This document shows, piece by piece, positions 90-12,205 of a DNA stretch of 64,000 bases. How positions within the stretch are numbered: the stretch's first letter is position 1; every line of letters starts with the position of its first letter. This stretch comes from a virus: IMG/VR virus record IMGVR_UViG_3300025646_005482, positions 96,331 through 160,330 of that record; one strand, written 5' to 3'. The position numbers and the translations under genes were made by a program. The notes beneath the pieces are model-generated. The model was not told the DNA's origin, ran no database searches, and saw nothing but the letters and a program-made list of their open reading frames with translations.

Positions 90-2333
90 ATGGCCAAGAA
101 ATTAGTACCTTCAGATTTTAAGACACACATTATCAATCAGATCATTGAATCAGTGACTGAACCAGCTAACACTGCATATTACGCTTTCGTTGGCGATCAT
201 GAAACCGTTGCATCATCTGAAGAAGAAATAGTGCAGCCTACTGAAACGTTTAGAAATACAAACACAAATGTTTTCCGCAATATGATTTTTGGCAAAAGAG
301 TTACTGCGCAAGATATTTCTTTTGTGATTAATAGAAACAATTGGATTTCTGGCACTGTATATGAAATGTATGACGATCAAAAGATTGACATACAAGATAC
401 TAATTTTTATGTTCTCGTAGATGAAAATTCATTTAAACATGTATATAAGTGTCTATTTAATAACAACGGTGCGCCAAGTACTGATAGACCTCTATTTAAG
501 AATGCGAAATACGAAGAAGATTTATTTTCGCCTGGTGATGATTATTATGAAACCTCTGATGGTTATCAGTGGAAATATATGTACAGTGTTTCTTCGTCGG
601 TATTTGATAAATTCGCGTCAGAAAAATATATTCCAGTAGTTGCAAATACTGTCGTAGCTAGTAATGCGCAAGAAGGATCGATCGATGTCATCAAAGTAAC
701 TGACGCAGGTAAAAACTATGAGAATCATCTCACTGGTAGATTTGTAAGAGCAGATATCGGTCGTATCACTAGAGCATTGATCCAAAGTGATACTGTAGAA
801 GCTTCTCCCGCGGATTCTACTGGAGCTAGTCATTTTGATATTATTAAAGCAGCTCAATGTTATAGAATTAAACCTACAGTAGATGATAGAGACATGACCA
901 CAAACTTCTATGCAAATACTATTTTGTATTTGACTACTGGTACGGGTGCGGGTCAATATCAGTTCGTTGAAAAGTCTGCTTACGTATCTGAAGTAGGTGG
1001 TGTTGTATTACAATTAGAAAATCAGTTCTCTGTTTTACCAGATGAAACTACTAATTACGAAATTACTCCAGCTGTTATTGTCACCGGCGATGGAGGTCAA
1101 ACAGTAAATGCAGTTGCTCGAGCAATTATTAATGCTAATGCATCGGACAGTGTACATAAAGTAGAGATGTTGAATACAGGAGCAGATTATTCGTTCGCGT
1201 CAGCTGAAGTTTTATCTGGCAACCCAAGATCAGTAAATGGTCAAAGTGTTGTTGTACAACCAGCAAGTGTCAGACCTATTCTTTCTCCACCTGGCGGTCA
1301 CGGAGCAAATACTATTGTAGAATTTGGAGCAAAAAGACTGTCATTCTATATGAAGTTTACTGGTAGCGAGTCTAACCTAGTTGAACCAACAAATACTTTC
1401 GCACAGTTTGGATTAATTAGAGATCCCAAATTTGCTAACGTAGCAATATATACTACCGACACGTCTGGTGAATTTTTGCCTAATGAAACTATAACTCAAT
1501 TTACTAAATTGCCTATCGGTGCAACTGGAAAATTTGTTTCTAATACATCTTTGGGAGCATCTATTCAAGACGTAACCTCAGGCGCAGATGAAAAATATGA
1601 TCAGCACTTTGTTGTAGGTGATTATATTTTCTTAAAAACCGAACCCTTGACTGGTGTTTCTCAATATTTTCTTACCACAGTCGGTGTAGGCAGTACTTCT
1701 AATACTATATCGCTTGCTGCTTCTCCTCCATGGATAACCTCTACAAGCATGTCTACAACAGCATATTATGTACATGTTCAAGGTTCAGCAAAAGTTAAAG
1801 CTACTACTTTACCTTTGCCGGCCGGTGCTACTAGTGGTTTATTATTAAATAACGTTACACCTGAATTCAAAAAAGATCATCAAATTTATGGTAGCTTGAG
1901 TAGAAATATTGCTACAATTCAAGGGATTGATATAAATACTAGAATCGGAGAAGCCGAATCAGATTTTCAGTTTGCCGATTTTAATCAGATGTTGAAGATT
2001 AGTGCTCCAGTTTTGTCAGGAACATTTGTTGAAGATGAAGAAGTTACACAAGGTGCACCAATCACGGCACGTGGTCAACTACATTCTATTGCAACAGCTG
2101 GTGGCGGTTCTACAATCAGCATGACTAATATAACAGGCCAATTTTCTACAGTAGGTACGATAACTGGCTCAACCAGTGGAGCTCAACTCTCTCAAACCGG
2201 ATCAAATGCTATGGATCTTGTATATGGAGATCTTGACCCAAATACTGGTACAATACTTTATCTACAAAACGATATTCCTGTAGATAGGGATGATGATCAA
2301 ACAGAAGAAATAAGAGTAATCTTGGAGTTCTAA
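90..2333 (+). CDS. gp8: Baseplate wedge subunit, T4 gp8-like
   Basis: Motifs VYKCLFNNNGAPST, DGYQWKYMY, PPGGHG and C-terminal EEIRVILEF are typical of marine T4-like gp8; it precedes the VrlC-like gene. Confidence 0.85.
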   Translation: MAKKLVPSDFKTHIINQIIESVTEPANTAYYAFVGDHETVASSEEEIVQPTETFRNTNTNVFRNMIFGKRVTAQDISFVINRNNWISGTVYEMYDDQKIDIQDTNFYVLVDENSFKHVYKCLFNNNGAPSTDRPLFKNAKYEEDLFSPGDDYYETSDGYQWKYMYSVSSSVFDKFASEKYIPVVANTVVASNAQEGSIDVIKVTDAGKNYENHLTGRFVRADIGRITRALIQSDTVEASPADSTGASHFDIIKAAQCYRIKPTVDDRDMTTNFYANTILYLTTGTGAGQYQFVEKSAYVSEVGGVVLQLENQFSVLPDETTNYEITPAVIVTGDGGQTVNAVARAIINANASDSVHKVEMLNTGADYSFASAEVLSGNPRSVNGQSVVVQPASVRPILSPPGGHGANTIVEFGAKRLSFYMKFTGSESNLVEPTNTFAQFGLIRDPKFANVAIYTTDTSGEFLPNETITQFTKLPIGATGKFVSNTSLGASIQDVTSGADEKYDQHFVVGDYIFLKTEPLTGVSQYFLTTVGVGSTSNTISLAASPPWITSTSMSTTAYYVHVQGSAKVKATTLPLPAGATSGLLLNNVTPEFKKDHQIYGSLSRNIATIQGIDINTRIGEAESDFQFADFNQMLKISAPVLSGTFVEDEEVTQGAPITARGQLHSIATAGGGSTISMTNITGQFSTVGTITGSTSGAQLSQTGSNAMDLVYGDLDPNTGTILYLQNDIPVDRDDDQTEEIRVILEF

Positions 2334-2336
2334 GTA

Positions 2337-5300
2337 ATGCCTTTAAACACTAATTTATCATCGGCTCCTTACTTTGACGATTTCGATAGAGACGATAACT
2401 ACTATCGAATTTTGTTCAAACCAGCTACTGCTGTTCAAGTAAGAGAAGTCAACCAGCTTCAGACGCTGTTACAGGATCAAATCGAACAATTCGGTGATCA
2501 TATCCTAAGAGCTGGTACAATCTTAGAAGGATGTACGTTCACTTATTTGAACTCAATGGCATTTGTGAAGATTACTGACAATGCTCTCGATGGAAAAGCT
2601 ATCGACCTAAATGCAATCAACGGTCTGAGCGCCAACGGACAAACATCGGGTAAAATTGGCAGAATTACTCACGTCGAAGATGGATTTGAAAATGATGCTG
2701 CAGGAAATCTAAAAACTCTTTATATCGATTACGACGATGATGACAATAATACAGCTGACAAAGACGAGTTTCAAGCTGGCGAAGAGATTAGAATTTTTGC
2801 ACGTGATGATAGACTGTACGATATCAAGATTGCTAATAATGCTACTGGCGCTCTTGTATTTTCAAATAATGACGTAGTAGTAATTACATCTGCAATCGAA
2901 ATTGCTGGTACGTTTACTGGCTCATCTGCAGATTTCTCAAATACATTCTCTCAAGGAGATACAATTACTGGTACTACAGCCGCTGGTAAAGTTATCGACA
3001 TGGAAGTTTGGTTTGCAGCTAATCCTGCTACAGATTCTACTCAAGATGAAACTCTCATTCTAAGAGTAAAACCAAAAGCCACTAAAATGTCTGGTGCCGC
3101 TATCGATACTGACTCTTGGTCAGTATCTGTCGGCGATGTATTGACTCATACCGAAGGCGGTCAAGAATTCAAGATCGTAAAAATGGTCGGTGAAGGAGCA
3201 AGCGCGCAGATTACGACAACTTCTCAGGGTCAAATGATCGACGCTACTGTTACACGTGGTGGTACAGGATATAGTACTCTGCCGCATATCAGTGTTTATT
3301 CTCAAGGAGCATCTTCAGCACAGTTAAATATCTTGACGATGGAAGCAGAAACATGGGCGATTAGACTTCAAGCAGCCCAAGTTACTGACACTGTAGGTAC
3401 GGGTTTTGGTGTTGAAGTTAGTGATGGCAAGATCTATCAAAAAGGTCTTTTCCTCAACGCCTCTAAACAATTTATCATGGTTGATAAGTATTCGAATACA
3501 CCTTCAGACGTATCAATTGGTTTTGACAGCACAGAAAGTATTGTCAACGTATTTACAGATTCTTCTTTATATGATAATGCGTCAGGCTTCTTGAATGAAG
3601 CAGCACCTGGTGCAGACAGATTAAAAGTTAGTCCTAGTCTTGTTGTGAAGACTGTAGCAGAAGAAAGAGCTGCAGGTAACTTCTTCCCGCTTGTGCGCTT
3701 CTCAGAAGGCAAGCCGTATCAACAGAATAAGTTGACTCAGTACAATAAGCTCGGCGATTTGATCGCACAGCGTACATATGAGGAGTCAGGTAACTATGTA
3801 CTCGATGAATTTAAGGCAGTATCACGCTCGACATTGGACTTTTCTGAATCTAACACGACGTTTAGTTATGTAATCGATCCAGGTCATGCGTATGTTCATG
3901 GTTATAGGGTCAAGACCGAAACAAATTTTGTTAAAGATGTTTCAAAAGGTTTAGTAACCCAGACTGAAACTGGTCTGGGGAGAGATCTTGTATATTCTAA
4001 TTATTTCGAAGTACATGATCTTGCTGGTTCATTTAACTTTAATACTGGCGAAGAGATTAGTTTACGAGATACAGCTGTAAATTACATTACAGACTATGAT
4101 CACGACACAAGTGATGTAACGAGTGCACTTGGCGGAACAGAAATTGGTACAGCTAAGATTCGAAGCATCGATTATGGTATAGGTATCAAAGGTACTAAGA
4201 CTGCTGTATATAAAATTCATGTTTTCGATGTAAGAATGAATCGCGGCAAATCTGTTCGCGATGTAAAATCTATCTATGCAAGTAATGGTGGTGGCGCAGC
4301 ACAAGATGGTATCGCTGACGTTTCTTTGATTTTTGATAACGCTAAAGTATTTCGTGGCTTAGTCAGCACAGGCATTCAAAGTGCTAATGGAACATACGAT
4401 CCTGTTGCTCGTGAAGAAATCGGCCGATTGATTAATCCTGAAGATGACGGTCTCGTACTTCCTTTAAGTGTTGCAGCAAAACAAATCACAAATTACGCAT
4501 ATATTTATCGTACAACACTAGATGGTGCGGCGGTTGCTGCGAATGGTATGATTACTGTACCATGTGAAGGATCTGCTGGTCCGACGGCTAATACTATCTT
4601 CCCATATATCGGTAATCTGACCGACGCTGAAGAAAATGAAATTATCGTAATTCCAAAACAAGATATTGTATCGACTACTACTGTAGGTGGTAGTGGATTT
4701 GATTATGCAAACGTTGCAATCACAGTAACAACGCCAGCAGGTACAGAAGCTAATCACTATGTTTTGACTTCTGGTGGAAGCGAATCGTTCTTGACCGACT
4801 TCAGAGTTGGTGATTGGATTTATGAAGATACATCAGCTGGTACACCAGTAGCACAGATTACAAGTATTGCTGGTCAGAATCAAATGACAGTGCGCACTAG
4901 ATCAGGTGCTTTCGGTGCTGCCCCTGGTTCAGGCAACTATGGCATCTATCGATACTATCCAAAAGATATGCCATTGCCTACCGGTACACGTACAGGCACG
5001 ACTGCGGCTGATGCATATGCATCTGTATCTGCAGATCGTCGTACGATGTATGTGCACACCGGCACAGCGATGTCTACTGCTCATCAATTTGTTGTGTACT
5101 TTAACCAATTGCACAATAATACTAAAGTTAGTCTGACCACGCGTCGTAAGCGCTATGTCAAACTCACCACGGCTGGTCAATGGCCTGTTACCGGTAAGTG
5201 TGTTGGTATTTCGGGTGCTATCCGATTGCATGCTGTTTATAATGGTACTAATGTAGACGGTTCTGGCAATCCTACTGACCCTGATATTACCAGTCAATTC

Positions 5301-8300
5301 GAATTAGATACACATGAAAATGGAAATTACTTTGGTCTTGGTCACCTACTCAAGAGAAATCTTGATAACTCGGTTACACTTTCGCCAACAATCCTAGTCG
5401 AGCTTGATTATATTACAGACGGTTGTGTGCATGGTCTGAAGACAGTCGATTCTTACAATCTAAACGACAGCTTAGAGTTGGCCGATCTGCGTAATAGTTC
5501 TTCTATGCACACATTAGAAATTCCTGAATTTAGAGATAAGAATGATAATTATTATGACTTAAGAGAGTGTGCTGACTTTAGACCATTTGCCGATTTGACA
5601 GCTGCAGATTCGACGACTGTAAGTGGTGCAACTACAGATCCTGCGAGTACAATTTCTTTTGCTAACTATTCTTCTTTCAAATATCCAAAGCCTGAAGGTG
5701 ATTTTACCTACGACATCGAATACTATTTAGGTCGTACAGACGAAATTTCTATAAAAGACGACGGTACATTTGAATTTGAATTAGGTGCTACTGACACTGA
5801 TACAAACAAAGCAAATAAATTGTTGTTGTTCAGATCTGAAGTGCCTCCATATCCTTCTCTTCCGGAAGCCGTATCTTCTGAAATTAAAGATATTTACGAA
5901 AGAAATCTTGTATGTAATGGCACACTCAATCTAAGGATCGCTGAATTTACTACTGTTATTAGTGAAGTAGATCCTCAAGTCAAAACTTATACTATGGCAG
6001 AATTGGCTAGTCTCGAGCGTCGTGTTGAAGCTCTTGAATATATGGCCAATGTTTCAGAACTTGAAAACAGCACGATGGCAAAATCTATTCCGAGTTCTAC
6101 TGACTCTACAGTAGAAAGATTTAAGTTTGGATTCTTTGTCGATAATTTTGAAGATAATTCATTAGCAGATATTGGCGCTGATTATTATGATGCATCTATA
6201 TACGAATACGTATTGCATCCTGATAGAACATCGTTAAATATCGATTATGAAATTTCAACAGCATCTAGTAAGTATAGAGAAGGTGATATTATCACTTTCC
6301 CGCATACACGTAAACTATTATTGTCACAAGAAACGGCAACATACGCTCCGTTCGTAGAAGTGCCTGAAGTACAGATTGTAGAAAACTGCGATTTCGAAAC
6401 TAATAGAAATATGAAAAATGCTGGTGACAGCACGACAGTTTATAGTAAACTACAAAAAGTATGGGAAGAATTTACGTTTGTAGGTGCAAATGAAGACGAT
6501 GGTACTCAGCGATATATCGAACTGAAGTTCTTTAACCCGAATAGAGGCATCATTTACGAAATCATTCAAAGCACTAAGCCTCCTACTCAAAATACTAGTG
6601 AAACTGGTACAACAGTTCATGCACCTACTTCAACAGCAGTGACTGCATTGAGCGCGACTGATGATGCAATTCCGCTTTATCAAAAGTTGTATCCAGTTAA
6701 AAATGCTAGAAATGCAATTTTGCCGTTTGCTACAAATCCATGGTTCCAGACACTGTCCGGTCCACAAAATGTTAGTATTACAGTAACAGGATCTCCGATA
6801 AATTATAAATCTTATCAGGGTGCAGGCAAAATTAAGATTCCATACGATTATACAAAAGGTCGATACATCACCGTACGAGTTCATAAGGGACCAGGCGGCA
6901 ATGTATTCAACTTCGAACTGTGTTATCCTGCGGTTTCTGACGTAGATGCTATCTATGATGCTGGAGCACAGAATGTCAGGACGAGGCCAGCACCTTGTCC
7001 CAAAGGCCAATTCAAGTATGAGCGATGTGTAGGCTCTAACTTGTATGTTTATGGTTGTGATGGTAACTACGGCACTCAAGTGAATAGAATTATTCGTAAT
7101 TCACCTAAGTGTTATATTCCTGTGCCGCCAAAACCGCCAGAGCCTATCAAGAGCTGTCCAAAAGCTGGAACATTTTATCGTTCTACATGCTCAGGTTCAA
7201 CTCAGAAAACTTACACTTATACAGGCGCAAGAGGTGCAGGACCAGGTGGTTGTGTAGTTCGAGTTTCTGATACGGTAATTTGTTCTAGTTCTTGTGGTTG
7301 TAGGCCTAAGCCTCCACCCGTTATTGTCAAGTGTCCTGTAAGGCCACCACCAATTGTACCGCCCGATGACGGCTGTACTGCGACTACTAAGCGTGATTGT
7401 GATATTAAAGTGTCGACTCCGCCACCAGCACCACCTGCTCCACCGCCAGCCCCGCCGAGGCCGCCGGCGCCGCCGGTGACACCACCAGCCCCGCCGAAGC
7501 CGCCAAAGAAAATTTTGACCAGCCCGCCGATTCCAAAGTGGTTGGGACCCAAGATATGTTTCGTTGCTGGTACATTGGTCGATATGGCAGATGGAAGTCA
7601 GAAGCTAATTCAAGATATGCAAGTTGGAGATCTTGTAATGGCAAAAGACGGGCAGCATGACACCGTATCATTTGTACACGATTTAGATGTAGCGTCGCAT
7701 GTACTAGTGAAATACAACAATAGAATTACTTCTACGTCTGGTCATGCTTTCTTGACAACCGATGGATGGAAATCTCTAGATCCTGAAATATCGCGAGAAG
7801 TTTATGACGATATCGATGTAGGTGAGATACAGATAGGTGATCATTTTGTCAAGAGCGATGGCACCACGGAAGAAATAACTTCTATGGATCATTGGGTAGA
7901 AGAGTGTAAAGTCTATAACTTTGTTACTGAAGATACTCATACATATGTTGTAGATGGAGTTGTGACGCATAATAAGCGACCGCCAGTGCGGATTAGTCCG
8001 GCGGGTGGTGGTAAAAAGACGACGGTTACGAAGCCGCCGGTTGTTCCGCCGCCTCCACCTCCTCCTCCGCCGCCTCCGCCCCCGCCGCCGAAGCCGCCGA
8101 AGAAGCCAACATTTGGTGGTGGTTGTGTACACGTAGACAGTTATCTGCCTATGGTTACGGAGCATCAACGACAAGCGTGGCAGATGTTGCCTGGTTCAGC
8201 TATATTATTGAGTTCGGAAGATCTCGAGAATACGGTTGGAACTATCGAGAAAGTACATACTCGACCAGAACCATGTGTCAGACTTGTCACGGAGTCAGGT

Positions 8301-8585
8301 ATCAGTCTCGTATGTTCGCATTCAGCGCCAATTATGACAGAAAGCAAAGATTATCTCGATGCTCCTGAAACATTGGGTGCTAGAGTAGCGGTCATGTCAA
8401 ACGATGAGGCACGCTTCGAAGAAGTTACAGAAGTTGTTGATATGGGTATTCTTGAAGTTAGACCTATCTCCGCCGGAAATCAAAATTTCTGGGCTGGTGA
8501 AAAGGATGGAGAATACATCTTACACCATAACATTTGGTTGAGACATAAAGTTAACTCATCGTTCCCGACGTTAAAGAAGAGGTAA
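2337..8585 (+). CDS. VrlC/DUF4815-like baseplate-associated structural protein, N-terminal part, with Cys-rich and Pro-rich segments and two C-terminal Hint domains
   Basis: N-terminus PYFDDFD..YYRILFKP..VQVREVNQLQ, plus APGADRLK, RTYEESGNY, YTMAEL..LERRVEALEY and RFKFGFFVDNF, which are hallmarks of DUF4815. Confidence 0.85.
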   Translation: MPLNTNLSSAPYFDDFDRDDNYYRILFKPATAVQVREVNQLQTLLQDQIEQFGDHILRAGTILEGCTFTYLNSMAFVKITDNALDGKAIDLNAINGLSANGQTSGKIGRITHVEDGFENDAAGNLKTLYIDYDDDDNNTADKDEFQAGEEIRIFARDDRLYDIKIANNATGALVFSNNDVVVITSAIEIAGTFTGSSADFSNTFSQGDTITGTTAAGKVIDMEVWFAANPATDSTQDETLILRVKPKATKMSGAAIDTDSWSVSVGDVLTHTEGGQEFKIVKMVGEGASAQITTTSQGQMIDATVTRGGTGYSTLPHISVYSQGASSAQLNILTMEAETWAIRLQAAQVTDTVGTGFGVEVSDGKIYQKGLFLNASKQFIMVDKYSNTPSDVSIGFDSTESIVNVFTDSSLYDNASGFLNEAAPGADRLKVSPSLVVKTVAEERAAGNFFPLVRFSEGKPYQQNKLTQYNKLGDLIAQRTYEESGNYVLDEFKAVSRSTLDFSESNTTFSYVIDPGHAYVHGYRVKTETNFVKDVSKGLVTQTETGLGRDLVYSNYFEVHDLAGSFNFNTGEEISLRDTAVNYITDYDHDTSDVTSALGGTEIGTAKIRSIDYGIGIKGTKTAVYKIHVFDVRMNRGKSVRDVKSIYASNGGGAAQDGIADVSLIFDNAKVFRGLVSTGIQSANGTYDPVAREEIGRLINPEDDGLVLPLSVAAKQITNYAYIYRTTLDGAAVAANGMITVPCEGSAGPTANTIFPYIGNLTDAEENEIIVIPKQDIVSTTTVGGSGFDYANVAITVTTPAGTEANHYVLTSGGSESFLTDFRVGDWIYEDTSAGTPVAQITSIAGQNQMTVRTRSGAFGAAPGSGNYGIYRYYPKDMPLPTGTRTGTTAADAYASVSADRRTMYVHTGTAMSTAHQFVVYFNQLHNNTKVSLTTRRKRYVKLTTAGQWPVTGKCVGISGAIRLHAVYNGTNVDGSGNPTDPDITSQFELDTHENGNYFGLGHLLKRNLDNSVTLSPTILVELDYITDGCVHGLKTVDSYNLNDSLELADLRNSSSMHTLEIPEFRDKNDNYYDLRECADFRPFADLTAADSTTVSGATTDPASTISFANYSSFKYPKPEGDFTYDIEYYLGRTDEISIKDDGTFEFELGATDTDTNKANKLLLFRSEVPPYPSLPEAVSSEIKDIYERNLVCNGTLNLRIAEFTTVISEVDPQVKTYTMAELASLERRVEALEYMANVSELENSTMAKSIPSSTDSTVERFKFGFFVDNFEDNSLADIGADYYDASIYEYVLHPDRTSLNIDYEISTASSKYREGDIITFPHTRKLLLSQETATYAPFVEVPEVQIVENCDFETNRNMKNAGDSTTVYSKLQKVWEEFTFVGANEDDGTQRYIELKFFNPNRGIIYEIIQSTKPPTQNTSETGTTVHAPTSTAVTALSATDDAIPLYQKLYPVKNARNAILPFATNPWFQTLSGPQNVSITVTGSPINYKSYQGAGKIKIPYDYTKGRYITVRVHKGPGGNVFNFELCYPAVSDVDAIYDAGAQNVRTRPAPCPKGQFKYERCVGSNLYVYGCDGNYGTQVNRIIRNSPKCYIPVPPKPPEPIKSCPKAGTFYRSTCSGSTQKTYTYTGARGAGPGGCVVRVSDTVICSSSCGCRPKPPPVIVKCPVRPPPIVPPDDGCTATTKRDCDIKVSTPPPAPPAPPPAPPRPPAPPVTPPAPPKPPKKILTSPPIPKWLGPKICFVAGTLVDMADGSQKLIQDMQVGDLVMAKDGQHDTVSFVHDLDVASHVLVKYNNRITSTSGHAFLTTDGWKSLDPEISREVYDDIDVGEIQIGDHFVKSDGTTEEITSMDHWVEECKVYNFVTEDTHTYVVDGVVTHNKRPPVRISPAGGGKKTTVTKPPVVPPPPPPPPPPPPPPPKPPKKPTFGGGCVHVDSYLPMVTEHQRQAWQMLPGSAILLSSEDLENTVGTIEKVHTRPEPCVRLVTESGISLVCSHSAPIMTESKDYLDAPETLGARVAVMSNDEARFEEVTEVVDMGILEVRPISAGNQNFWAGEKDGEYILHHNIWLRHKVNSSFPTLKKR
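7419..7535 (+). repeat. GC-rich poly-proline linker before Hint 1
   Basis: CCG/CCA-rich run encoding PPPAPPAPPPAPPRPPAPPVTPPAPPKPPKK. Confidence 0.85.
7557..7973 (+). other. Hint (intein-like) domain 1, 139 aa
   Basis: Starts CFVAGTLVDMADG..IQDMQVGDLV, has a block-B-like TSGHAF and ends VYNF..THTYVVDGVVTHN. The +1 residue is Lys. Confidence 0.9.
8031..8109 (+). repeat. GC-rich poly-proline linker before Hint 2
   Basis: Encodes KPPVVP, a long poly-Pro run, then KPPKKP. Confidence 0.85.
8124..8531 (+). other. Hint (intein-like) domain 2, 136 aa, divergent
   Basis: Starts GGG|CVHVDSYL, has VRLVTESGISLVCSHSAPI and ends VRPISAGNQNFWAG..YILHHN. The +1 residue is Ile. Confidence 0.8.
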
Positions 8586-8591
8586 GATTAA

Positions 8592-9224
8592 ATGGCAGCA
8601 CATGAAAGAGCCAATGAATCGTTTGGATATCGAGAGCACTTATATTATAATGGAGTAATTAAGAGCACTCGATATCCTATTAATGATTCATTATCTAGTG
8701 GAGCAAAGACCATACTGACGGATAATTTTCCTGCTTACGCTAGCTGGATTGCTAAATATAATCATAATGTCATTGGCAGTAATGTAGCTTGGCGTGAACC
8801 ATACGGCAGCGGCACAATGGTTACTTTGTATGTCACTGAGCAACCTATTGATTCATTGAAAACTGAATGGTCAGTCGACACGAATTTGGATTGTTGCACT
8901 TGGTTCGGATTTAAATTTATGTTGACTGATAATTCAGTTCAGCTAAAAGTTCCATTTTATGATCCTGACGGTTATTACACACAACCATCATTTCCAGTAA
9001 CACCAGCACACTTTGCTAATGTGTATAGTACAAGCGGTTTATGGGGAAAAAGGGAAGCATTTTTCTGGGAAGGTGGTTATCAGACAATTACTAATTATTG
9101 TAATACACATGGTCTATCAAAACCATGGGGAAGTAACACGAGTTTAAGATTTAGACAGTGGTCTGTAGTTTATGATTCAGAAACACTTGTGCCAGAAATG
9201 GTAAAAATGTATGTCTACGAATAA
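8592..9224 (+). CDS. Hypothetical protein (aromatic-rich, 210 aa)
   Basis: Closely spaced ORF after the Hint-bearing gene; no recognisable motif. Confidence 0.7.
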   Translation: MAAHERANESFGYREHLYYNGVIKSTRYPINDSLSSGAKTILTDNFPAYASWIAKYNHNVIGSNVAWREPYGSGTMVTLYVTEQPIDSLKTEWSVDTNLDCCTWFGFKFMLTDNSVQLKVPFYDPDGYYTQPSFPVTPAHFANVYSTSGLWGKREAFFWEGGYQTITNYCNTHGLSKPWGSNTSLRFRQWSVVYDSETLVPEMVKMYVYE

Positions 9225-9345
9225 AGAAATTAAATTTTTACATGATGTAAAAAAGATTAATGAAAAATTCTGGGCAGCGGTAGAAAGAGAAAAAAAGATA
9301 CGTCAATATAACGTTGATAAGAAGATAGGTAAAGTCAATGGCTAG
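9211..9345 (+). CDS. Small basic hypothetical protein (44 aa), not in the ORF track
   Basis: ATG at 9211, MSTNKEIKFLHDVKKINEKFWAAVEREKKIRQYNVDKKIGKVNG, TAG at 9343-9345. It fills the gap and overlaps both neighbours. Confidence 0.5.
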   Translation: MSTNKEIKFLHDVKKINEKFWAAVEREKKIRQYNVDKKIGKVNG

Positions 9346-12205
9346 GAAAAATCTTGGACGAAGTATAAACACCCTTAGGAAAAAAGGTCAAAGCATATTT
9401 AGACTGCCTCGTAATATTCCTAATTTTGCTGGTGGTAATTCACTTAATCCTCTTAAAGTTAGACCTATGGTGATCAAAGCGCGTGGTCTTAAGCCTAATA
9501 CAAAGTATAAGGTAATGCTTGATAATCAAGCTGGTAGCGCGTTCGAGGATATTACTGACACATCAAAACCAGTGGGTAAAACTCGTAAAAATAATACTAT
9601 TACTCGTATTGCTCCAGCTTTTGGCGGAGGTAAACCTGCGCGTCAATTTATCAAGACTGACTCGAAAGGAAATCTTGAAGTAAGGTGCAAGCCTTTTGGT
9701 ACCGAAGAAAATACTAAACCGGCAGTTGTTGTTCCTTCTCCTGGTGTAATAGTTTGTAAACCGCCTACACATGGTAAATTGTGGAAATACTGGCATGGAC
9801 GTGTTCGCGCTAACGATTTCGGCAGAGATAGAATCAAGCTGATTCAATACAGCGCAATTCAGAATCCTGACGCCTCTGATCGTGTAAAAACACTTAAAAA
9901 AGAAATTTCTACTGAGACTGTTAGACCTGGTAAACCTACGAGTCGGCCTAAAAAAGCACCAGAGTATTATTTGCCGCCTGCTGTTATCTGCGATGTTCCG
10001 CCAAAACCCGAAGGCGAGATCATTAAGAAAGTTCAAGAAAAGGTAATCACTGATTATTATCAAACTTTTTATATCGATGCTGACGTCGTAGACGGTTCTG
10101 ATACTGTTGATTTGTTGGATGTTTCTTTGTATATCCGCTCAAAACCACAATTTAAAGCAAATGCATCAGGAGCAGAAGGTCCTGGCATCAATATTTGTTT
10201 GATAGATTGTGAAGTAGATGGTACTCCTATCATTGATTCTAAATATGCAGACTCAGTTGTTGACCTCGATTATCATGCTATCAAAGCATCACCTCTTGCA
10301 ACTTCTGAAACTGTATTTAAATTCCCTAGTCCGGTCACCGTAAGAACTAATGCTCATTATGCGATCGCAGTGTTCCTTGAAGATCAGGGCTACATACTTT
10401 GGGACAATCGTAAAGGCGATCTGACCATTGTAGATGGTCAGAAAACTGAAGAGCGCTCACAAGGTTCATCTAAAGGTCATAAAGGCGACGTCTATTTTTA
10501 TAACGATGAAGCAGTTCAAGGCAAAAAAGGCAAACCACAATGGGTACCTAAGAATGATCTTGACTTAAAGTTTGATGTACATATTGCAGAATATTCAGTT
10601 AGTGATGTAACAGTAAAACTTGTAAACAAGCCATATGAATTCTTTAACCTGTCTTCTGTTTCCGGAACAGACTGGGATCCAGGCGAATTAGTTTATAAGC
10701 AACAAGCATCTAATCGTCCAGGTACCGTATCTGTTGTTGCAGGTGCACAAAAAATTACTGGTGACGCTAGTACAGACTTTACTGATTTGACTGATGGTCA
10801 AAAAATTGTATTGATCGATTCTACTGATAACAGTATCAGAGACATTTTTACTGTCGATCGATCAGTTTCTGGTACAGCAAACACTTTGTATGTAGATGAA
10901 ATTGCCGAGATTGACATTACTGGAAATTATCAAGTTACTGTTGTGGCTGAAGTAGAATATTTTGATTACTACTTTAATTCCATTCGACTAGAGAATTCCA
11001 GCGTAAACTATACTCAATATACAAATGCAAATTCAGCCCTATCAAATACTCTGATTTTTGCAGTTGGAGACACTATCAGAGGTGTAGATTCTGGTATGAC
11101 TGCAGTCATCGACTCTTATAATCCTTTGCCTGTATCTACATTCCGCGCTGATATGAATGCTACTGTACCTCCACAATTTAAGACAGTTACACATTACAAC
11201 TTTAGCTATGAAGATTCTACTACACCTGGCGTTTATTACCTTGCTGATACTGATAAGCAATTTTTCTTGAATGCACCAAACCACATCAAAGGTTATGCTG
11301 GTACATTGCTTAGCGCTTCTCAAGAAGTTGATCAAACTCATTCTGGTATGATTGATAATCAAAGCAGATCATCTGAAATTGAGATTACGTATCAATATAC
11401 TGGTGCTAATACAAGATGTTATGCTTGTCCTACCATTTCTCTTGACGAACTAGAAATGACTACTCACAGATGGGTAATTAACAACGATGGTACGAACGAG
11501 CACCTGAACGAGGGTAACGCGAAGACAAGACACATTTCATCTGTCCTAGATTTAGGTCCTGGTAGTGATGCAGAAGATGTTCGTCTTATCATGAATGCAT
11601 ACAAGCCGAGAGGCACTTCTATTCATGCATATGCTAGGATACAAAATAGAGACGATACAGAAAACTTCGATAATATCAACTGGACTAAGTTGAAGCTGGT
11701 CGGTGGTGGTGATTCGTTTAGTGATCCAACCGAACAGTTTGATTATGTTGAACTTGAATTTGGACTAGATGATTATACAACTGGCACAAATATCTCAGGG
11801 GCGTTTACTACTGTATCAGGTTCAGCTGTTATTACAGGGTCAGTCGGTACCGATGTTTCTAGTGTAAATGTTGATGATACAATCAGAATTTATAGTCCTC
11901 TATTCGAAGATAATTATCAAATATTTAATGTTGAATCTAAAGATGTCGGAGCTAGAACTATCACATTATCAGAAGCAATAGCTAATAATAATATTGTTGG
12001 TGAGGGTTTCAAAGTCGATATCATGACTGCGCCTACCGCTGCATTTAAGAATCCTGATAATTATGGCATCGCTAGATATTATAATTCAACAGGTGAGAAG
12101 TTCGACACCTATAGCAGATTGCAGGTTAAACTAGTGTTGCTAGCACAAAATAGGTACTTAGTACCAAAAGTTGATGACTATCGAGTAATTGGAGTTACTG
12201 CTTAA
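9338..12205 (+). CDS. VrlC/DUF4815-like protein, C-terminal part
   Basis: RGLKPNTKY, TDSKGNL, YQTFYID, DLKFDV, AEDVRL..AYKPRGTSI and terminal VPKVDDYRVIGV match the C-terminal half of VrlC-like phage proteins. Confidence 0.75.
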   Translation: MARKNLGRSINTLRKKGQSIFRLPRNIPNFAGGNSLNPLKVRPMVIKARGLKPNTKYKVMLDNQAGSAFEDITDTSKPVGKTRKNNTITRIAPAFGGGKPARQFIKTDSKGNLEVRCKPFGTEENTKPAVVVPSPGVIVCKPPTHGKLWKYWHGRVRANDFGRDRIKLIQYSAIQNPDASDRVKTLKKEISTETVRPGKPTSRPKKAPEYYLPPAVICDVPPKPEGEIIKKVQEKVITDYYQTFYIDADVVDGSDTVDLLDVSLYIRSKPQFKANASGAEGPGINICLIDCEVDGTPIIDSKYADSVVDLDYHAIKASPLATSETVFKFPSPVTVRTNAHYAIAVFLEDQGYILWDNRKGDLTIVDGQKTEERSQGSSKGHKGDVYFYNDEAVQGKKGKPQWVPKNDLDLKFDVHIAEYSVSDVTVKLVNKPYEFFNLSSVSGTDWDPGELVYKQQASNRPGTVSVVAGAQKITGDASTDFTDLTDGQKIVLIDSTDNSIRDIFTVDRSVSGTANTLYVDEIAEIDITGNYQVTVVAEVEYFDYYFNSIRLENSSVNYTQYTNANSALSNTLIFAVGDTIRGVDSGMTAVIDSYNPLPVSTFRADMNATVPPQFKTVTHYNFSYEDSTTPGVYYLADTDKQFFLNAPNHIKGYAGTLLSASQEVDQTHSGMIDNQSRSSEIEITYQYTGANTRCYACPTISLDELEMTTHRWVINNDGTNEHLNEGNAKTRHISSVLDLGPGSDAEDVRLIMNAYKPRGTSIHAYARIQNRDDTENFDNINWTKLKLVGGGDSFSDPTEQFDYVELEFGLDDYTTGTNISGAFTTVSGSAVITGSVGTDVSSVNVDDTIRIYSPLFEDNYQIFNVESKDVGARTITLSEAIANNNIVGEGFKVDIMTAPTAAFKNPDNYGIARYYNSTGEKFDTYSRLQVKLVLLAQNRYLVPKVDDYRVIGVTA

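Follow-up and report, generated by a model that had tools for sequence, protein, structure and literature searches.

The DNA analyzed here, a stretch of 64,000 nucleotides that we refer to as the window (positions 96,331 to 160,330 of the IMG/VR virus record IMGVR_UViG_3300025646_005482), contains a gene for a predicted phage virion protein whose C-terminus holds two tandem and dissimilar Hint domains. From sequence and structure models we judge it rather probable that both domains are autoprocessing C-terminal modules, which would strip approximately 340 residues from the protein, with hydrolysis or bacterial intein-like (BIL) ligation of the downstream peptide. Hint domains occur in inteins, Hedgehog proteins, BILs and pretoxin modules. 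Our search of the literature on DUF4815/VrlC, on Hint in combination with tail fibers and on Hint in combination with bacteriocins returned no earlier description of such Hint modules, nor does any annotation or paper that we reached describe phage tail, tail-tip or baseplate proteins as being routinely capped at the C-terminus by a Hint domain.

Two Hint domains at the C-terminus

A preliminary description, made from the letters of this DNA, had placed two tandem Hint domains here, the first ending in THN before a Lys and the second in HHN before an Ile, set apart by a 50-residue Pro/Lys-rich linker and followed by a 17-residue tail; the open reading frame (ORF) confirms the exact positions and both lengths (Table 1). 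Its further claims, that neither domain has a splicing nucleophile or an endonuclease, also hold, as the +1 residues are Lys1880 (Hint 1) and Ile2066 (Hint 2), and the domains, at only 139 and 136 residues, have no room for an endonuclease and yield models that align end to end with mini-inteins. Of the features of class 1 inteins, the Cys nucleophile (Cys1741, Cys1930) and the terminal His-Asn (in THN and HHN) are found in both domains and the block-B TxxH in Hint 1 only (T1800-S-G-H1803), and neither domain has a +1 Cys/Ser/Thr or is inserted at a conserved host-protein site. Identification of either as a true mobile intein was rejected, there being no +1 nucleophile or endonuclease and the sites being a low-complexity linker or the terminus. 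The two are as dissimilar as had been claimed (BLASTP E 3.5 between them; family-versus-family hhalign probability 28%), and on the same values we rejected Hint 2 as a diverged copy of Hint 1.

Hint 1 is readily recognized. Scanned alone it matches the Pfam families Hom_end_hint (48 bits, E 2e-12, cut-off 32.1) and PT-HINT (PF07591; 32.7 bits, cut-off 27.7), the latter at 24.2 bits, under its cut-off, when scored within the full-length protein. The best phmmer match in the PDB is the Clostridium thermocellum BIL 2lwy (E 6e-5), with the Tetrahymena BUBL BIL2 also among the best, and the Hint 1 model (predicted local distance difference test, pLDDT, 92.4) superposes on BUBL BIL2 (6y75) with Z 20.9 and 1.8 Å over 137 residues at 25% identity, on the C. 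thermocellum BIL with Z 17.6 at 30% identity, and on more than 40 solved Hint domains with Z 15-21. The Cys1, Thr-x-x-His and His-Asn columns are invariant in nine Hint 1 homologues. Hint 1 shares with type A BILs (2lwy) its Cys1, TxxH and terminal His-Asn, the lack of a +1 nucleophile and of an endonuclease, and a location in a variable region of a surface protein; it differs in that the host is a predicted phage virion protein. On the strength of these motifs and of the best matches to 2lwy and 6y75, rather than of a BIL-specific profile, we class Hint 1 as a predicted BIL-type mini-Hint. Its likeness to pretoxin HINT modules, which act autoproteolytically at the C-terminus of proteins that are secreted or exposed at the surface, extends to the PF07591 match obtained when it is scanned alone; it differs from them in that it is followed only by the 50-residue linker, Hint 2 and 17 residues, with no toxin domain and no Pfam match beyond Hint families, and toxin delivery via PT-HINT was rejected.

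Linkers 1 and 2 have in common a core of about 20 nucleotides coding for PPKPPKK, and linker 2 aligns with the sole linker of those homologues that have Hint 2 only. Because the close homologues without Hint 1 (P0004, P0006-8 and P0010) keep an otherwise colinear linker, Hint 1 is read as an insertion into the polyproline linker, and the sequence comparison makes it a secondary event, separate from Hint 2. No relative was found in IMG/VR with Hint 1 alone as the query. Among the Hint1-type domains collected here the +1 residue is Lys in 17/25 and Arg in 4/25. A separate observation is the metagenomic protein P0005 (1285 residues), in which seven Hint1-type domains follow each other head to tail, 2-3 residues apart (…VHN/K-G-G/C…, …VHN/K/C…; slashes mark domain borders), an array that is BUBL-like and without ubiquitin-like spacers.

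Hint 2 is far less conspicuous, with zero matches in Pfam at E<=10 or in NCBIfam, only chance matches (to RecA) with phmmer against the PDB, and weak intein matches only (gp41-1, E 0.076) when its family profile was searched against the PDB. An AlphaFold model built from an alignment of 37 relatives has a pLDDT of 91, and its top Foldseek matches are all inteins, BILs or Hedgehog. VIA-align places the model on Hedgehog (1at0/6tyy) with Z 19.6 and 1.9 Å over 134 residues, and on the NpuDnaB, SspDnaB and Mtu RecA mini-inteins with Z of approximately 19, and in these superpositions the first intein residue is matched by Cys1930 and the terminal Asn by Asn2065. The preliminary description had looked to profile searches for the Hint fold of this second domain; no Pfam or NCBIfam profile matches it, but as its model superposes on solved Hints the assignment survives at the level of structure, and Hint 2 has, by its model, a Hint fold. 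The Hom_end_hint score of Hint 1 and the Z of 19.6 for Hint 2 both lie well outside what chance would give.

It had also been stated that Hint 2 has no obvious block-B TxxH, and this is so. The stretch L-V-C-S-H-S-A-P is placed on block B both by the gp41-1 profile alignment and by hhalign against the Hint1-type family, and has Ser in place of Thr and Ala in place of His (S-H-S-A, Ser1994 to Ala1997). Directly before this Ser lies Cys1993 (window 8313-8315), conserved in 96% of 210 Hint2-type domains, and to judge by sequence it could be a redox gate with Cys1, a relay nucleophile or a structural residue. With type A BILs Hint 2 shares Cys1, His-Asn and a non-nucleophilic +1 residue; it differs from them in having C-S-x-x-A-P for TxxH, a Gly-run at -1, and a near-fixed C-terminal place with a short tail, and in going undetected by the Pfam or NCBIfam Hint profiles. 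Hedgehog Hog/Hint (1at0) is its top structural match (Z 19.4-19.6, 1.9 Å over 133-134 residues) and is likewise a C-terminal module with a Gly/Cys junction, from which it releases an N-terminal cargo. Hedgehog differs in that it keeps TxxH, has a sterol-recognition region and is without a catalytic terminal Asn, whereas Hint 2 has SxxA, HHN and a tail of only 11-17 residues, such that of the features of Hog domains only the fold and the Gly/Cys junction are common to both.

Table 1. Positions in the window of the Hint-bearing gene, its C-terminal features and its neighbors (dN/dS, ratio of nonsynonymous to synonymous substitution rates).
Feature	Position	Strand	Remarks
Upstream neighbor, gp6-like baseplate wedge subunit	90..2333	+	phrog_438, E 1e-80
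Whole gene	2337..8585	+	single ORF, 2082 residues; DUF4815 / VrlC-like tail or baseplate-region protein
Cys-rich region, residues 1551-1690	6987..7406	+	kept among homologues, precedes linkers; dN/dS 0.065
Polyproline linker 1, residues 1691-1740	7407..7556	+	ends ...PPKPPKK...WLGPKI; dN/dS 0.14
Hint 1, residues 1741-1879 (139 residues)	7557..7973	+	Cys1741, T1800-S-G-H1803, His1878-Asn1879, +1 Lys1880
Linker 2 (50 residues, Pro/Lys-rich)	7974..8123	+	KRPP...poly-Pro...KPPKKPTFGGG
Hint 2, residues 1930-2065 (136 residues)	8124..8531	+	Cys1930, Cys1993-Ser1994-x-x-Ala1997-Pro1998, His2063-His2064-Asn2065, +1 Ile2066
C-terminal tail (17 residues)	8532..8582	+	IW...FPTLKKR; stop codon 8583-8585
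Downstream gene (955 residues) with 'C-part' of VrlC/DUF4815	9338..12205	+	matches phrog_358 positions 1750-2054

The Hint 2 family and Hint content of DUF4815 proteins

An exhaustive HMMER search with Hint 2 recovered 510 representatives of clusters formed at 50% identity at E<=1e-3, and 198 at E<=1e-10. The family signature reads GGGG/C-V ... L-x-C-S-x-x-A-P ... H-H-N/ followed by a short tail, and across 210 unique full-length Hint2-type domains its columns are close to invariant: Cys (98%) and Val (98%) at positions 1 and 2; Leu (100%), Cys (96%), Ser (99%), Ala (96%) and Pro (99%) at positions 62, 64, 65, 68 and 69; Phe (97%) and Ala (99%) at positions 122 and 124; and His (96%), His (100%) and Asn (99%) at positions 134 to 136. 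The -1 residue is Gly in 105/161 domains, 63 of which have GGGG before Cys1, and the +1 residue is M, L, V, I, K or A, with C, S or T in only 5/195. The tail has a median of 15 residues and is no longer than 30 in 147/195 domains. Short tails of like pattern, with a hydrophobic start and a basic K-K end, recur across the family; the 17-residue tail of the window protein is modeled with a pLDDT of about 57-61. In IMG/VR, 73 ORFs carry a Hint2-type domain, always at the extreme C-terminus (tail of 5-25 residues) and usually after poly-Pro and GGGG, and here too a tail pattern recurs (e.g. V-P-I-N-D-x-x-N-Y-D-K-K). Hint models match 0/37 and 1/86 of the Hint2-type relatives scanned, and 0/97 listed relatives have a precomputed Hint Pfam domain. 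Hint 2 belongs to a variant family of Hints for which the libraries searched (Pfam-A and NCBIfam) contain no model. Type C BILs, a further kind, are associated with the PPS-1 domain in predatory bacteria (PMC9185962).

The proteins that carry Hint2-type domains include DUF4815 proteins, gpJ-type tip proteins (FNIII-A_GpJ, Phage-tail_3), tail-collar fibers and collagen-like proteins, in addition to one RHS protein and pilin-like proteins. Among isolates they include jumbo Xanthomonas phages, and LUCX_306 of phage LucasX, a protein of 448 residues with a Hint2-type end, adjoins tail-fiber-like genes. A scan of contigs with a single narrow pattern returned 10 loci (Burkholderiales, Xanthomonadales and Gallionellaceae), a number that says little on taxonomic range.

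A survey of Hint copy number among DUF4815 homologues, as proposed in the preliminary description, found several arrangements. A Hint2-type domain only is the commonest (P0004, P0006-10, P0012-16, P0018, P0027 and many loci); a Hint1-type domain only, terminal or near-terminal, is present in P0011, P0019, P0021 and P0024, and two Hint1-type domains in P0017 and P0023. The seven-domain protein P0005 is not annotated as DUF4815. The tandem pair of Hint 1 and Hint 2 occurs in only three proteins of the survey, those of the window, P0003 and L006. Hint 2 is the usual C-terminal module, and probably an ancestral one, of the VrlC/DUF4815 family, and a module of this kind also ends many other phage tail proteins.

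Several members of the Hint 2 family depart from the common plan. The one clear exception to the C-terminal rule is P0174, a 1248-residue 'RHS repeat protein' from a Burkholderiales metagenome-assembled genome (MAG), in which the domain occupies residues 100-235 and is followed by approximately 1000 residues with RHS repeats. Eight proteins (P0077, P0079, P0103, P0106, P0054, P0133, P0123 and P0156) have two tandem Hint2-type domains joined by HHN/K-K-x-G-(F/Y/W)/C, and P0077 begins with a type IV pilin-like methylation motif. In phage DLP_6 (KU682439.2) an unannotated Hint2-type coding stretch (L087:1335-1637) lies upstream of the neck genes, where the linear record begins, and is probably a gene end that was missed by annotation or cut by linearization. 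Last, bacterial proteins of 250-280 residues (P0083, P0088, P0104, P0105, P0149, P0159 and P0059) begin with a double-glycine leader (MREI..EL..V-S/A-G-G) of the class-II-bacteriocin type, which is followed by a Gly/Ala- or Cys-rich core of about 90 residues, a Hint2-type domain and a short tail. Approximately 5 kb downstream of P0083 itself (L002:8001-8768, Pseudomonadota MAG, MES2298086.1) are genes for an HlyD-type protein and a Peptidase_C39 ABC exporter. By their sequences, such proteins look like bacteriocin or microcin precursors with a putatively self-processing Hint end.

Selection on the two domains

Comparison of the window protein with an 82-91% identical relative on contig L075 gave a dN/dS of 0.068 for the N-terminal part, 0.115 for Hint 1 (at dS 0.64), 0.053 for Hint 2 and 0.14-0.35 for the linkers, with dS of about 0.65-0.86 in the domains. 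Both Hints are under purifying selection, and neither is therefore a decaying remnant. This bears directly on the suggestion that Hint 1 might be a selfish mini-intein in decay, with +1 nucleophile and endonuclease lost and no role for the phage. Its insertion relative to close homologues and its best Pfam score, to the intein-type Hom_end_hint, would fit such an origin; nevertheless, the site is a low-complexity linker rather than a conserved host-protein site, the catalytic residues are all intact and invariant in the nine homologues, the dN/dS of 0.115 is that of a constrained domain, and related HN/K domains are found again in phage structural proteins as single copies, as pairs and as an array of seven, so that we regard this origin as very unlikely.

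The same comparison helps in weighing whether one or both Hints are non-catalytic, forming a distal structural or receptor-binding knob in which Cys and Asn are kept for structural reasons, e.g. a disulfide. Hint 2 is without the block-B His, its second and 96% conserved Cys (Cys1993) could pair with Cys1, and in gpJ-like and tail-fiber proteins the domain is placed distally, where receptor binding is expected. However, a near-invariant Cys1, terminal Asn, penultimate His and Gly at -1 are a signature of processing and not of binding, tail-tip binding surfaces normally vary, in contrast to a dN/dS here of 0.05, and in relatives the same position is taken by the Hint1-type domain, which is unrelated in sequence. 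A non-catalytic role is for these reasons an unlikely one.

Proposed processing

It has been described that Cys1 forms a thioester with the preceding residue, and that the terminal Asn cyclizes and thereby cuts the C-terminal junction (PMC4031507). Each Hint of the window protein would accordingly be expected to undergo an N-S acyl shift at its N-terminal junction (Ile/Cys1741 and Gly/Cys1930) and to have its C-terminal junction cut through cyclization of Asn1879 or Asn2065, the mature virion protein being left without its approximately 340 C-terminal residues. The thioester may be resolved by water, which would amount to plain cleavage and leave ...GGG-COOH, or through attack by the amine on the peptide that lies downstream, which would amount to BIL-type splicing without a +1 nucleophile. 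It had been proposed earlier that BIL and toxin-type Hints without this nucleophile mainly autocleave; they do mostly cleave, but type A BILs also splice by way of a freed alpha-amine that attacks the thioester (PMC4031507), and as such the lack of a +1 nucleophile does not restrict the outcome to cleavage. The count of up to five autoproteolytic pieces given in that description, and its idea that transient thioesters could join the virion protein or the inter-Hint peptide to another molecule, are conjectures. That this chemistry occurs in the window protein, and with what timing and products, we infer from the folds, residues, family signature, conservation, selection and insertion history observed above.

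A number of considerations weigh against this account. Inteins and Hedgehog rely on a block-B His for their N-S acyl shift; Hint 2 has none, and its N-terminal reaction may therefore be slow, conditional or absent. In Hint 1 the -1 position is taken by a beta-branched Ile. Simple removal leaves unexplained why a short tail of recurring pattern is retained after His-Asn, and the tail of the window protein itself has a dN/dS of 0.62 (17 codons) and 47% identity in the closest pair. Furthermore, reactivity is beyond what AlphaFold models can demonstrate. Three features that this account leaves unexplained, namely the absent block-B His, the additional conserved Cys and the tail, make gated or ligating chemistry, or a function without catalysis, conceivable though unlikely, and the interpretation put forward in the preliminary description is, taken as a whole, partly supported.

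Peptidase_S74-type self-cleaving intramolecular chaperone domains of phage tail fibers and spikes are, like the proposed Hint modules, C-terminal and expected to remove themselves after assembly, and they are unrelated to Hint in both fold and chemistry (a Ser-Lys dyad as opposed to a Cys thioester with Asn cyclization). They differ further in being known as chaperones.

Possible ligation and the module boundary

The product of the 955-residue gene downstream of the Hint-bearing gene, which corresponds to the VrlC C-part, is homologous as well to the 530-residue segment after the internal Hint1-type domain of P0020 (E 4.5e-21). In Sinorhizobium phage phiM7 the N- and C-parts form one coding sequence (CDS; gp90, 1801 residues; L089), in DLP_6 they occupy two adjacent CDSs (AAY80_267/268; L088), in the window they are separate genes, and in P0020 they form one chain with the Hint between them. 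Given that the parts may be fused (phiM7), split (DLP_6 and the window) or interrupted by a Hint (P0020), the Hints sit at a fusion/fission point, and this position, deduced from sequence, is in keeping with a role in cleaving or joining modules at their boundary.

It is conceivable, though unlikely, that the thioesters serve ligation and not removal, either the tail protein, by its Gly-rich C-terminus, or the peptide between the Hints being moved to an outside nucleophile, candidate acceptors being a Lys of another virion protein (e.g. the separate VrlC C-part) or an amine of the host envelope. Such a transfer might be likened to that of Hedgehog to cholesterol or to the conjugation of BUBL BIL2 to lysine. 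In Tetrahymena thermophila, BIL2 (6y75, 6tmm), which uses Cys1 and a terminal Asn, is located between ubiquitin-like domains and conjugates these to lysines, forming Lys isopeptide bonds to other proteins (PMC8616854), and among solved structures it is the nearest to Hint 1 (Z 20.9); the Hints here differ in being flanked by polyproline linkers and a tail. The Gly-Gly before the Cys of BIL2 resembles the GGG/C of Hint 2, and the GGGG/C of the Hint 2 family is nearer to the G/C of Hedgehog and the GG/C of BUBL than to intein junctions, Hedgehog also giving the top Z with the Hint 2 model. The prevalence of Lys at +1 of Hint1-type domains (17/25) and the presence of the VrlC C-part as a fused segment in phiM7 and as a separate gene in the window would agree with transfer as well. 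On the other hand, the acceptors are candidates only, the Arg at +1 in 4/25 domains indicates that basic charge and not a nucleophile may be under selection, Hedgehog-type transfer needs no terminal Asn, yet the Asn is strictly kept, and a thioester in an extracellular virion would need either to persist or to be gated.

A more specific form of transfer, which we regard as quite unlikely, would have the Hint2-type module act as a thioester 'warhead' on a polyproline stalk, its GGG C-terminus serving as a latent thioester for covalent transfer. The absence of the block-B His would then slow this thioester, or the second, conserved Cys would gate it. Its targets might be the VrlC C-part (rebuilding the phiM7-type fused protein), another baseplate protein or an amine of the host envelope (covalent adsorption). 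Were this true, the bacteriocin-like bacterial members would modify or cyclize an exported peptide by the same chemistry.

Gene, protein and genome setting

The 2082-residue protein matches Pfam DUF4815 (E 2.5e-44) and phrog_358 (E 5e-150, 'unknown function'), and structural annotations of the members of this family are in conflict (PMC8341000). Homologues in isolates are labeled 'VrlC protein' or 'adsorption associated tail protein'. The term 'baseplate protein' used in the preliminary description is thus only half secured, in that the gene follows that of a gp6-like wedge subunit but the family itself carries the label of unknown function. The order of baseplate wedge and VrlC gene recurs in phiM7 and DLP_6, and the window spans the structural genes of an uncultured T4-like myovirus, with wedge, DUF4815 gene, tail-fiber-like genes, sheath, portal and major head protein. 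Assignment of the protein to the virion tail or baseplate region is a prediction from sequence and context that is partly shown. A Pfam scan of its Cys-rich region (residues 1551-1690) gave no match, and blastn of the whole gene against isolated phages likewise gave none.

The IMG/VR record comprises 160 kb and is about 89% complete. Its major capsid protein is approximately 60% identical to those of Stenotrophomonas phage DLP_6, Sinorhizobium phage phiM12 and Pelagibacter phage HTVC008M, and no psbA was found in the 160-kb record; with these capsid relatives and no psbA, a cyanophage origin is not supported. Directly 3' of the Hint-bearing gene lies an ORF of 210 residues (8592-9224) without a PHROG match, and the related contig L075 has an ORF of 211 residues (9229-9864) at the equivalent place. 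The 210-residue product could be a processing partner.

Implications

Hint 1 adds a predicted BIL-type domain with an unusual host, and a chain that combines a canonical BIL with a variant Hint, as the window protein does, is convenient for comparing the two. The block-B His is generally considered the most conserved catalytic residue of the Hint superfamily. As the Hint 2 family has dispensed with this residue, yet retains a near-invariant Cys1, Gly at -1 and His-His-Asn, it constitutes a natural experiment on how the N-S acyl shift is run or gated, and it is a possible source of new self-cleaving or ligating tags. For the annotation and maturation of phage receptor-binding proteins, the consequence would be that predicted and mature C-termini differ by approximately 150-340 residues.

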